This document shows, piece after piece, positions 12,847 to 14,745 of a DNA stretch of 16,384 nucleotides; within the stretch, counting starts at the first letter, position 1; each line of letters starts with the position of its first letter. This DNA comes from a virus. Taxonomy: Duplodnaviria; Heunggongvirae; Uroviricota; Caudoviricetes. Position numbers and translations under genes: made by a program. The DNA is taken from the IMG/VR virus record IMGVR_UViG_2531839530_000004; one strand, written 5' to 3'. Below the pieces are notes generated by a model. It was not told the DNA's origin and made no database searches. It saw only the letters and a list, made by a program, of their open reading frames with translations.

Positions 12847-14745
12847 ATGCGCATCTGGAAAAAACGTCGCGAAGGTGAACGCAAGGAAACCGGAAAATAC
12901 ACGTCTGTTGTTGATCTCGCCCGCGCCAGAGCCAATCAACAGTACACTGAAAATTCAACAGGAAAAATCAGCCCGGTCATTGCTGCCATTCATCGCGAAT
13001 ACAAGCAGACATGGAAAACACTGGATGACGAACTGGCCTACGCTCTCTGGCCTAGTGATGTGGATGCCGGAAACATTGACGGCAGCATCCATCGCTGGGC
13101 AAAAAAAGAAGTTATCGACAACGACCGCGAAGACTGGAAGCGTATCTCGGCATCAATGCGCAAACAGCCTGATGCCCTTCGCTACGACCGCCAAACTATT
13201 TTTGGCCTTGTCCGTGAGCGTCCGATCGACATTCACAAAGATCCCGTAGCACTGAACAAATATATCTGCGAATACCTGACGACAAAGGGCGTGTTTGAGA
13301 ATGAAGAAACAGACCTGGGCACTGTTGATGTTCTCCAGTCATCAGAAACACAAACTGATGCAGTGGAAACTGAGGTATCTGATATCCCAAAAAATGAAAC
13401 CGCGCCGGAAGCTGAACCATCTGTAGAGCGTGAGGGGCCGTTCTATTTCCTCTTCGCAGATAAGGACGGAGAAAAATACGGTCGCGCAAACAAACTCTCT
13501 GGTCTGGATAAGGCACTGGCTGCTGGCGCCACTGAAATCACAAAAGAAGAATATTTTGCCCGAAAAAATGGCACATACACGGGCTTACCGCAAAATGTAG
13601 ATACCGCTGAAGATTCAGAACAACCAGAGCCGATAAAAGTTACCGCTGACGAAGTAAACAAAATTATGCAGGCAGCCAATATCAGCCAGCCTGACGCCGA
13701 TAAGTTGCTTGCTGCATCACGTGGTGAATTTGTTGAAGGGATTAGTGACCCGAATGATCCGAAATGGGTTAAGGGGCTCCAGACCCGCGATTCTGTGAAC
13801 CAGAACCAGCATGAATCGGAACGGAACTACCAAAAAGCGGAACAAAACAGTCCAAATGCGTTACAAAACGAGCCAGAAACGAAACAGCCTGAACCAGTAG
13901 CGCAACAGGAAGTGGAAAAAGTCTGCACCGCCTGCGGTCAGACCGGCGGCGGCAACTGCCCTGATTGTGGCGCGGTGATGGGCGACGCAACATACCAAGA
14001 AACATTCGATGAAGAGTATCAGGTTGAAGTTCAGGAAGATGATCCGGAGGAAATGGAAGGCGCTGAACATCCACACAAGGAGAACACTGGCGGCAATCAG
14101 CATCACAATAGCGATAATGAAACTGGCGAGACGGCAGATCACCCAATTAAGGTGAACGGTCATCACGAAATCACATCCACCAGCAGGACGTGTGACCATC
14201 TAATGATCGACCTTGAAACCATGGGAAAAAATCCTGATGCCCCGATCATCTCAATAGGTGCAATATTTTTCGATCCGCAAACCGGAGATATGGGACCGGA
14301 ATTTAGTAAGACTATCGATCTGGAAACTGCTGGCGGAGTCATTGATCGGGACACCATTAAATGGTGGCTTAAGCAATCACGCGAAGCGCAATCTGCCATT
14401 ATGACCGATGAAATCCCGTTAGATGATGCACTGTTACAATTGCGAGAATTTATCGACGAAAACTCCGGTGAATTTTTTGTTCAGGTTTGGGGAAATGGAG
14501 CCAACTTCGACAACACGATTTTGCGCCGTTCATACGAACGGCAGGGGATCCCCTGCCCGTGGCGTTACTACAACGATCGCGATGTACGCACAATCGTTGA
14601 GCTGGGGAAAGCCATAGACTTCGATGCCAGAACGGCTATTCCATTCGAAGGTGAGCGCCATAATGCACTTGATGACGCCCGTTACCAGGCAAAATACGTT
14701 TCAGTTATCTGGCAAAAACTGATCCCGAGTCAGGCTGATTCTTAA
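12847..14745 (+). CDS. Phage-type exonuclease with C-terminal DnaQ-like DEDDh 3'-5' exonuclease domain; start uncertain
   Basis: C-terminal region carries the DEDDh motifs in order: MIDLETMG, WGNGANFDNT, HNALDDARYQ; a CxxC-x9-CxxC zinc ribbon (CTACGQTGGGNCPDCG) and acidic low-complexity linker precede it; lies directly upstream of xis-int. The frame is open from 12712 (TTG); other candidate starts are TTG 12778 (GGAG RBS) and ATG 12847. Confidence 0.75.
   Translation: MRIWKKRREGERKETGKYTSVVDLARARANQQYTENSTGKISPVIAAIHREYKQTWKTLDDELAYALWPSDVDAGNIDGSIHRWAKKEVIDNDREDWKRISASMRKQPDALRYDRQTIFGLVRERPIDIHKDPVALNKYICEYLTTKGVFENEETDLGTVDVLQSSETQTDAVETEVSDIPKNETAPEAEPSVEREGPFYFLFADKDGEKYGRANKLSGLDKALAAGATEITKEEYFARKNGTYTGLPQNVDTAEDSEQPEPIKVTADEVNKIMQAANISQPDADKLLAASRGEFVEGISDPNDPKWVKGLQTRDSVNQNQHESERNYQKAEQNSPNALQNEPETKQPEPVAQQEVEKVCTACGQTGGGNCPDCGAVMGDATYQETFDEEYQVEVQEDDPEEMEGAEHPHKENTGGNQHHNSDNETGETADHPIKVNGHHEITSTSRTCDHLMIDLETMGKNPDAPIISIGAIFFDPQTGDMGPEFSKTIDLETAGGVIDRDTIKWWLKQSREAQSAIMTDEIPLDDALLQLREFIDENSGEFFVQVWGNGANFDNTILRRSYERQGIPCPWRYYNDRDVRTIVELGKAIDFDARTAIPFEGERHNALDDARYQAKYVSVIWQKLIPSQADS

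Follow-up and report, generated by a model that had tools for sequence, protein, structure and literature searches.

A 5'-truncated ydfE-family exonuclease gene from a Qin-type E. coli prophage and its relationship to RecE

The open reading frame at 12847-14745 on the plus strand of the window (the whole 16,384-nucleotide stretch of viral DNA analysed here) is, by comparison with its relatives, a 5'-truncated remnant of a ydfE-family prophage gene, annotated as a pseudogene, and not an intact new enzyme. The remnant itself is longer than this frame, comprising codons 164-823 and the stop at 12763..14745 (+), as supported by identity to Escherichia phage PhiR42_1, by the PGAP annotation and by PHROG 2082. 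Taking the evidence as a whole, we consider it probable that the window carries the 3' 80% of an early-left-operon gene of the ydfE family, from a Qin-type E. coli prophage, that was silenced by deletion, and that the product of the intact gene would be a tethered 3'-5' DNA exonuclease.

The remnant, its deletion junction and the intact gene

The intact gene has 823 codons and is present in Escherichia phage PhiR42_1 (XSB42569.1; cluster P0001; PHROG 2082). The remnant is 100% identical in amino acid sequence to residues 164-823 of the PhiR42_1 protein, and the PHROG 2082 match to the window ORF is restricted to profile positions 192-822 of 823. The pseudogene status of the window copy was already known from RefSeq, whose PGAP entry for the same sequence reads ‘incomplete; missing N-terminus’. 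The frame is real, as first annotated: it runs uninterrupted on the plus strand over 12712..14745, and translation from ATG 12847 gives the 632 aa of the ORF list. This ATG (12847..12849, +) is only the first in-frame ATG of the remnant, corresponding to codon 192 of the intact gene and not to the native start, and homology to the intact gene begins 5' of it, at 12763 (codon 164). We rejected TTG 12712 as the true start; the stretch of frame there is antisense lygF sequence, and the frame is therefore open back to 12712 by chance only.

Alignment to the PhiR42_1 locus (L003) locates the event that removed the 5' end. Positions 8467-12771 of the window match L003 1-4305 and positions 12762-16384 match L003 8916-12538, so that L003 4306-8915, about 4610 bp, is missing from the window while the rest is collinear. 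The two matches overlap at 12762..12771, the deletion junction, in an imperfect 10-bp microhomology, GTA(T/G)CCGGAG, and in this alignment the loss of about 4.6 kb is shown to be an illegitimate deletion at microhomology. The lost segment held the 5' part of lygF, the O, cII, DicC and DicA genes, the ydfA-to-ydfD region, which in K-12 contains dicF and dicB (the dicBF operon), and codons 1-163 of the exonuclease gene. Relative to PhiR42_1, with which it shares the downstream xis-int, the window has no immunity region, and the deletion has taken the gene's own start codon and its promoter region (dicA/dicC), along with the full-length N-terminus and the upstream operon. On the opposite side of the deletion, a lygF (DUF977) remnant at 12522..12771 (-), aligning to L003 lygF 4056-4305 and likewise a PGAP pseudogene ‘missing N-terminus’, stands head-to-head with the exonuclease remnant. 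The junction is common to 90 of 5426 complete E. coli genomes; E. coli 300709 and MS 124-1 are examples of strains that have it. Collinearity of the window with strain 300709 (L001) throughout was considered and rejected; upstream of about 9400, L001 has an additional IS150. Downstream of the remnant, the early-left operon continues with the excisionase gene (14818..15069, +), and beyond it lies a Qin-type integrase gene that is intact in the window (15089..16384, +), of which K-12 intQ has kept only the portion corresponding to window 15225-16384.

The initial annotation had suggested that K-12 Qin may retain a truncated fragment of this gene, ydfE, and had supposed that the window could hold an intact version. 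The first of these ideas is borne out: ydfE (b1577), a Qin prophage pseudogene, is the same gene at the same locus, with its 5' end kept as codons 1-256, identical to residues 1-256 of the intact 823-aa protein, before it passes into IS2E sequence (an IS2 insertion). The second fails, as in the window it is the 3' end that survives, from codon 164 onward. Both copies are incomplete; they overlap in 93 codons (164-256; window 12762-13040), where nucleotide identity is 100%. The result for the window is thus a correction, in which the remnant is the complement of K-12 ydfE and supplies the second half of a single gene.

Of 5426 complete E. coli genomes, 3537 (~65%) contain at least 80% of the gene, in up to 10 copies per genome, and the P0001 90% cluster has 23183 member sequences, placing the intact gene among the most widespread E. 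coli prophage genes. Around 100 protein clusters have lengths of 822-831 aa. Gene order in intact prophages is dicB-ydfD-exo-xis-int, and the early-left slot that the exo gene takes up in Qin-like prophages is the slot of recE-recT in Rac. A literature search on ydfE function or RecE/DEDDh chimeras found no paper. In Pfam, YdfE_N (PF27430) is listed for 823-aa members and is absent from the precomputed lists of P0002 and P0003, which are equally truncated; the window copy is without the YdfE_N region, codons 1-163 having been deleted. YdfE_C (PF27432) is listed for truncated P0002 and P0003, which start at about aa 161-163, and not for P0045, which starts at about aa 197, and the remnant probably keeps part of this domain.

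Domain architecture and kinship with RecE

Structure prediction and profile comparisons show the intact 823-aa protein to be modular, with domain boundaries in the N-terminal part taken from an AlphaFold2 model of aa 1-447. In this model domain 1 covers aa 1-205, most of it at pLDDT above 90, and the break at aa 163/164 splits this confidently folded domain, separating helix 158-161 from helix 165-178. What the window retains of domain 1 is its last two helices only (aa 164-205; 12763..12888, +). A low-confidence linker leads to helical domain 2 (aa 246-340; 13009..13293, +; pLDDT ~90), which is weakly similar to RecE 278-351 (~25% identity, with a match to NF007259). Next comes a disordered acidic linker 1 (aa 344-384; 13303..13425, +), with pLDDT below 50 and 30% Asp/Glu in aa 361-390, and then a mini-domain of about 45 aa (aa 388-432; 13435..13569, +) predicted as two beta-hairpins plus helices at pLDDT ~90. 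The mini-domain carries the invariant motif GPFY...GRANK...EI..EEY.ARK, with G388, P389, F390, Y391, R404, A405, N406 and K407 as invariant alignment columns. The order of domains first described holds, and it is the N-terminal ~250 aa, then treated as one domain, that dissolves in the AlphaFold2 model into one to two helices of a cut domain, a linker, a helical domain, an acidic linker and a mini-domain. Comparison of the scaffold fold with solved and viral structures gave no informative relative.

The following segment is a cassette shared with Rac RecE (aa 472-627 = RecE 452-592; 13687..14154, +). Two blocks, which include the zinc knuckle and an acidic linker, are 78% (aa 472-517) and 71% (aa 532-622) identical to RecE in amino acid sequence, and nucleotide identity is 78% over gene nt 1425-1867. 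The knuckle, CTACGQTGGGNCPDC, is a putative zinc site read from the translation at 13924..13968 (+); the full set of four cysteines is conserved in 119 of 120 close relatives, and the cysteines are also found in RecE. The initial annotation had seen this feature as a CxxC-x9-CxxC ribbon, and while the four-cysteine site stands, its spacing is CxxC-x7-CxxC. The acidic linker proposed at the same time also stands: acidic linker 2 (aa 567-625; 13972..14148, +), after the knuckle and directly upstream of the nuclease domain, reaches 43% Asp/Glu in aa 571-600 and is conserved with RecE 531-590.

Overall, residues 262-627 of the intact protein are homologous to RecE 278-592 (BLASTP 2e-61). The match to NCBIfam NF007259 scores 283 bits against a cutoff of 1269 and covers only profile positions 271-600 of 877, and the K-12 RecE alignment ends at RecE 592, before the RecE nuclease domain. 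A PDDEXK profile search of the protein gave no match, its C-terminus being DEDDh instead, in agreement with the earlier view that this nuclease is unlike the PD-(D/E)xK domain of RecE. Neither the window protein nor the intact 823-aa protein matches PF06630 (RecE N-terminal, Exonuc_VIII), a domain that is present in P0123 and P0126. Rac RecE and the ydfE-family protein therefore have in common a DKLLAASRGEF..GISDPNDPKW motif, the CxxC-x7-CxxC knuckle, the acidic linker and the early-left slot upstream of xis-int, but RecE's PF06630 domain and PD-(D/E)xK 5'-3' nuclease are absent from the ydfE family. The operons differ too, as Rac has recE-recT, whereas the ydfE-family gene leads directly to xis and int, in the window and in intact prophages, without recT. 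The label ‘exonuclease VIII’ had been suspected of being positional rather than mechanistic. Its source is true homology to the non-catalytic part of RecE and not gene position, but judged by the predicted catalytic domain it is still mechanistically wrong for the ydfE family. The inherited names are misleading, with ‘exodeoxyribonuclease VIII’ wrong for the catalytic domain and ‘exoribonuclease’ unsupported as to substrate.

Some relatives have exchanged end modules. In P0123 (805 aa) a DEDDh domain comes after a portion matching RecE 1-592 at 88% identity, P0141 joins a YdfE-type N-terminus to PD-(D/E)xK (PDDEXK/DUF3799), and the P0137 class joins a YdfE-type N-terminus to a Rad52-like domain, with a Gam-like gene on one side of P0137 and xis-int on the other. 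These chimeras, all of them from outside the window, each have at least one module in common with the intact gene, and the same inter-module break points. We tentatively propose, while giving the idea rather less than an even chance, that the N-terminal and central parts of RecE and YdfE are a general scaffold of lambdoid-prophage recombination modules, into which interchangeable C-terminal effectors are plugged at a fixed junction just after the acidic linker. The effectors seen are a PD-(D/E)xK 5'-3' exonuclease, a DexA-like DEDDh 3'-5' exonuclease, a Rad52-like annealase and at least one further domain. In our main and more probable reading, the flexible acidic linkers would tether the nuclease to a scaffold serving the phage recombination and DNA-end-processing module, and the same scaffold in relatives would carry the RecE 5'-3' PD-(D/E)xK nuclease or the Rad52-like annealase.

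In the PhiR42_1-type phage records inspected, we found no annealase gene beside the DEDDh version, so that these records give no sign of the classical pairing of exonuclease and annealase for recombination. Degradation with 3'-5' polarity would not leave the 3' tails on which annealases act, either, and both points weigh against the main reading. If the scaffold idea is correct, many database ‘exodeoxyribonuclease VIII’ proteins would be scaffold-tethered annealases and not nucleases, the DEDDh form would represent, in most E. coli, a single-gene DNA-end-processing function with a polarity opposite to that of RecE, and what the RecE N-terminus contributes to linear-linear recombination would be a property of the scaffold. 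That N-terminal region is of unknown function and enhances linear-linear recombination (PMC11611040). The module swaps offer a practical approach to the first 590 residues of RecE, of relevance to linear-linear recombineering, and they draw attention to a class of Rad52-like annealase fusions that carry the wrong label in Klebsiella, Salmonella and Enterobacter.

The C-terminal nuclease and its likely substrate

The assignment of the C-terminus to a DEDDh 3'-5' exonuclease fold, made in the initial annotation with a Pfam search as its check, is upheld by that search. The domain (aa 642-813, or aa 451-622 of the 632-aa frame; 14197..14712, +) matches PF16473 (Rv2179c-like) with an E-value of 1.7e-67 and 227 bits against a cutoff of 27, over profile positions 2-177 of 177. 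The predicted catalytic residues are D646 and E648 (IDLET), D746 (NFD), and H796 and D801 (HNALDD); in the alignment the D, E, D and H columns are invariant and the last Asp nearly so. In a search of the PDB with the family profile, the closest solved relative is T4 DexA (8KEL, 2.9e-22), with a match spanning all DEDDh motifs. The whole DexA core aligns to the C-terminal domain with the DEDDh residues all in place. DexA is a DNA exonuclease (PMC12153337), and we infer by analogy that the intact protein would be an Mg2+-dependent 3'-5' exonuclease acting on DNA ends. The two differ in context, as T4 DexA is a free-standing protein of 227 aa with a dimer/tetramer switch (PMC12153337), while here the domain is the C-terminal 22% of 823 aa. 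At positions W152, D169 and D90 of DexA the window protein has Tyr, apparently Ala, and Asp, with the caveat that the loop alignment is uncertain.

The exclusion of other phages is a frequent function of early genes in prophages, and dicB, which belongs to this operon, is said to have it. The intact family might accordingly be imagined as an anti-phage defence nuclease (‘HREX’) that, as reported for EcD, spares unmodified host DNA and degrades the 5hmC DNA of T-even phages. The identity of the closest solved relative fits this idea, and so do two findings on DexA homologues: EcD, an E. coli homologue (GenBank HAK9828821.1), confers protection against T4 on E. coli when it is plasmid-borne, and bacterial homologues are more numerous in Escherichia than in any other genus (PMC12153337). 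However, W152 and D169 of DexA, which serve 5hmC recognition, are both required for activity on T4 DNA (PMC12153337), and it is these residues that are Tyr and apparently Ala in our protein, subject to the same uncertainty in the loop. The equivalent of D90, a tetramer contact, is Asp here but Ala in EcD. A search of PADLOC-DB with the exonuclease returned no defence-system match, and a defence role would not account for the presence of the scaffold in RecE-type and Rad52-like proteins as well. We consider this explanation unlikely.

We think it still less likely that the domain is a 3'-5' exoribonuclease acting on RNA, such as phage or host transcripts or small RNAs like DicF. The best Pfam family is indeed named after the M. 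tuberculosis exoribonuclease Rv2179c, the NCBI name is ‘3'-5' exoribonuclease domain-containing protein’, and, after DexA and one DnaQ entry, the PDB matches are mainly oligoribonucleases, at E-values of about 1e-4. Yet in sequence DexA, a DNA exonuclease, is a much nearer relative of the domain than any RNase of solved structure, the PDB matches at E-values up to 0.01 include no identifiable Rv2179c entry, and the partners of the scaffold in relatives, the RecE nuclease and the Rad52-like domain, are DNA enzymes. Action on DNA ends remains the reading that we favor.

Expression and integrity of the remnant

Judged by its context, the remnant would appear to be a silent pseudogene of recent origin, although comparison with the intact gene finds that no disabling mutations have accumulated in it. 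The openness of the frame could be read differently: the deletion might have created a working variant, an exonuclease with a shortened N-terminus that is expressed as the 632-aa ORF from ATG 12847 or from another start close by. The remnant keeps the complete DEDDh domain, the zinc knuckle, the RecE-like cassette and helical domain 2, there are zero mutations relative to the intact gene, and the recurrence of the same junction in complete genomes would suit a variant that works. But a recent deletion would leave just as perfect an identity to the intact gene. The dicA/dicC promoter region and start codon are deleted, and the upstream neighbor is a truncated gene on the opposite strand. A promoter scan of 12000-15200 returned 3 promoter-like sites where 3.6 are expected by chance, with no excess upstream of the remnant, and the only Shine-Dalgarno-like sequence upstream of ATG 12847 (AGG/GAG) is weak. 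Domain 1 is cut through its fold in the AlphaFold2 model, and PGAP calls a pseudogene. We therefore regard a functional shortened enzyme as very unlikely, and return to a silenced gene as the preferred reading.

Finally, we rule out an artefact in which a frameshift, or an error of sequencing or assembly, has merged two neighboring genes into the multi-domain ORF, a concern already raised in the initial annotation. Nothing was found in its favor and its chance is practically negligible, given a continuous 823-codon ORF in independent phage records, in thousands of complete genomes (the 3537 of 5426 above) and across the clusters of 822-831 aa, and given that the joins to RecE-like sequence are conserved and keep the reading frame.

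Loss of the 5' end of a ydfE-family gene

The DNA at window 12763-14745 (+) is almost certainly a ydfE-family exonuclease gene that has lost its 5' part. The frame is open on the plus strand from 12712 to 14745, the stretch back to 12712 only because antisense sequence of the DUF977 gene lygF chances to lack stops, and a start at ATG 12847 would give a 632-aa product. Excisionase (14818-15069, +) and integrase (15089-16384, +) genes follow. On the other side lie a lygF remnant (12522-12771, -; the 88-codon ORF called there spans 12522-12788) and a small SAM-dependent methyltransferase gene (12169-12525, -; PADLOC MTase_II 4.5e-45, orphan MTase 2.8e-33). 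Many E. coli chromosomes match the 2.2 kb round the ORF at 100% identity, and in them it borders rspB and ynfA at the Qin prophage's integrase end.

Several observations define the truncation. RefSeq PGAP calls the same sequence a pseudogene ('3'-5' exoribonuclease domain-containing protein; incomplete; missing N-terminus'), abutted on the opposite strand by a second one ('DUF977 family protein; missing N-terminus'), and the match to PHROG 2082 ('exonuclease', 823 positions) starts only at position 192. Escherichia phage PhiR42_1, resident as a prophage in ECOR13, has an 823-codon gene (L003:8428-10899) with ydfA to ydfD before it and xis-int after. The window is collinear with this phage in two blocks only (window 8467-12771 with L003 1-4305, and 12762-16384 with 8916-12538), so that about 4610 bp are absent from the window. 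The junction is an imperfect 10-bp microhomology, GTA(T/G)CCGGAG. The missing DNA takes in a 5' portion of lygF, genes encoding O, cII, DicC (Cro) and DicA (cI), the ydfA-to-ydfD run (home of dicF and dicB in K-12), and exonuclease codons 1-163; the same 4.6 kb deletion took the genes upstream of the methyltransferase and lygF remnant, on the rightward-operon side. The translated remnant equals intact residues 164-823 with zero substitutions, which argues that the deletion is recent. Of 5426 complete E. coli genomes, 90 covered at least 80% of a junction-spanning query; the gene itself reached that coverage in 3537, at as many as 10 copies in a genome.

The initial annotation had suggested that K-12 ydfE may be a truncated fragment of this gene, and rightly: K-12 YdfE is identical to intact residues 1-256 and then runs into IS2E. 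Its further suggestion that the window might hold an intact version falls with the loss of codons 1-163. Window 13041-15224, which spans xis as well as the remainder of the gene and a 5' portion of int, is absent from K-12. K-12 therefore holds the 5' end and the window the 3' end, the two copies overlapping at codons 164-256. The window feature has been described before, as an annotated pseudogene in a family that has both Pfam models and NCBI names, and the finding is ordinary; the initial observation is confirmed in part and its interpretation supported in part.

Domain organization of the intact protein

For aa 1-447 of P0001, the cluster representative, an AlphaFold2 model (18-sequence alignment, mean pLDDT 79) has five segments. 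Domain 1 (aa 1-205) is modelled with confidence, alpha/beta at first and helical thereafter, and a linker of low confidence separates it from domain 2 (aa 246-340), which is helical. Beyond these come an acidic linker modelled as disordered (aa 344-384) and a mini-domain of about 45 residues (aa 388-432), in which the alignment has an invariant GPFY...GRANK motif. The N-terminal stretch of about 250 aa, initially taken as one domain, resolves into several segments. In this model the deletion point, aa 163/164, falls within domain 1, of which the window copy keeps the last two helices and nothing more; a product starting at Met192 would retain half of the last helix. Precomputed annotations list the newer Pfam models PF27430 (YdfE_N) and PF27432 (YdfE_C), and database proteins truncated to the same extent lack YdfE_N there.

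The centre is related to RecE. By BLASTP, residues 262-627 match K-12 RecE 278-592 (E 2e-61), with identity of 11-50% per block before residue 470, 78% at aa 472-517 and 71% at aa 532-622; nucleotide identity to recE is 78% over gene nt 1425-1867. The conserved cassette shared with RecE contains the motif DKLLAASRGEF..GISDPNDPKW, a four-Cys knuckle (CTACGQTGGGNCPDC; window 13924-13968) and an acidic linker (aa 571-600, 43% Asp/Glu). The four Cys are retained in 119 of 120 close relatives, with variable spacer residues; the knuckle was correctly noticed at the outset, but the translation spaces it CxxC-x7-CxxC rather than x9. Similarity ends at RecE 592, directly ahead of the RecE nuclease domain, which has been placed at residues 564-866 (PMC11611040). 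Contrary to the initial annotation, an 'exonuclease VIII' label on this family is thus not purely positional, since the central region is shared by descent. The window gene is nonetheless not exonuclease VIII, because it lacks RecE's nuclease domain, N-terminal domain and recT partner, and because its match to the exodeoxyribonuclease VIII equivalog NF007259 (positions 271-600 of 877) scores 283 bits against a far higher cutoff of 1269.

The C-terminal DEDDh 3'-5' exonuclease fold was well assigned. Every sequence criterion places it in the PF16473 group (Rv2179c-like 3'-5' exoribonuclease domain; 1.7e-67, aa 451-622 of 632, intact aa 642-813). The DEDDh set comprises D646/E648, D746 and H796/D801; across a 34-member family alignment the D, E, D and H columns do not vary, and the final Asp is nearly invariant. 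A profile of that alignment matched T4 DexA in the PDB over the whole domain (8KEL, 8KEN; 2.9e-22), after which came a DnaQ entry and oligoribonucleases, the nearest other solved relatives, at only 1e-5 to 1e-3. The 8KEL entry is DexA, a DNA exonuclease (PMC12153337).

Exchanged ends and candidate function

We searched the intact protein against 1.84 billion cluster representatives, followed by Pfam scans and alignment. Judged from these alignments, ydfE-family proteins are built on a scaffold whose ends can be exchanged. K-12 RecE joins its own N-terminal domain (PF06630) to a PD-(D/E)xK nuclease, while P0123, P0126, P0133 and P0136 join PF06630 to DEDDh. The window gene and P0001 pair the YdfE-type N-terminus with DEDDh; on that same N-terminus P0141 (921 aa) bears PDDEXK/DUF3799 (PDDEXK-like per Pfam), the P0137 class (745-807 aa) an end that is Rad52-like by fold, and P0129 (702 aa) about 250 aa without a Pfam match, whose only match is PHROG 26058 (no known function). 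Over RecE residues 1-592, P0123 (805 aa) shares 88% identity with the K-12 protein before continuing into a DexA-like DEDDh domain; as read from its sequence, it is a natural RecE(1-592)::DEDDh chimera, a clean nuclease-domain swap at the same junction.

Members of the P0137 class, found in Klebsiella, Salmonella, Enterobacter and Citrobacter, are usually labelled 'exodeoxyribonuclease VIII', and those scanned had no detectable Pfam nuclease domain. Their C-terminal 270 residues have Rad52-resembling motifs (Pfam Rad52_Rad22 E 0.004, below threshold). One such gene sits between a Gam-like gene and Sipho_Gp157-DUF3268-xis-int, which we read as a recombination-module position. These proteins are probably mislabelled Rad52-like fusions. 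Neither the modular swap pattern nor the fusions were found in the literature searched, and any novelty may lie here, outside the window, in a widespread family with instructive architecture.

By eye, proteins in the alignment inputs that are otherwise alike carry at least three alternative versions of helical domain 2 (aa ~235-345), dissimilar to one another in sequence and including the RecE type, which suggests mosaic exchange within the scaffold too.

The gene lies in the early-left operon, immediately upstream of xis-int, and its intact form is widely retained; no annealase gene stood beside the DEDDh version at the loci examined. The intact protein is a predicted Mg2+-dependent 3'-5' exonuclease, its nuclease presumably tethered to the scaffold by long acidic disordered linkers. 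Current database names suggest RNA as the substrate, but no solved RNase comes nearly as close to the domain in sequence as DexA does; DNA is likelier, DexA being by far the nearest characterized relative. Since the same scaffold bears a RecE nuclease or a Rad52-like annealase in relatives, we tentatively suggest, as a reading somewhat short of an even chance, a DNA exonuclease acting in phage DNA-end processing or recombination. The N-terminal region of RecE, of unknown function, enhances linear-linear recombination (PMC11611040), which fits a scaffold or targeting role. A rival is that the intact family serves as an anti-phage 'HREX' nuclease, as reported for EcD, a DexA homologue of E. coli (PMC12153337); against this, Tyr and apparently Ala align with DexA W152 and D169, respectively, and PADLOC gave no match for the exonuclease.

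The window remnant could possibly be expressed as a shortened enzyme from ATG 12847, which is preceded by a weak Shine-Dalgarno-like element and nothing better, but this is unsupported because the promoter is gone and domain 1 broken; a scan of 12000-15200 found no promoter-like sites beyond the chance number. A fusion artefact of two genes, a possibility raised in the initial annotation, is excluded by the continuous 823-codon ORF in phage records, protein clusters and complete genomes.

Other features of the window

An uninterrupted 437-aa transposase ORF (window 9189-10502, -) lies at the end of the K-12 match (window 9373). In the corresponding region of strain 300709 the ISNCY-family transposase is annotated as a partial pseudogene and adjoined by an IS150, so the window is not collinear with it upstream of about 9400. 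The Rfam sok antitoxin RNA (RF01794) matches window 10576-10747 (-) at 104 bits, well over its gathering score of 59; the match adjoins the ISNCY-type transposase ORF, far from hokD, and the ORFs of at least 30 aa near it include no obvious Hok candidate. Two cspA-type thermoregulator leaders (RF01766), at 431-816 (-; 113 bits) and 3326-3718 (-; 167 bits), are presumably 5' UTRs of Qin cold-shock genes.
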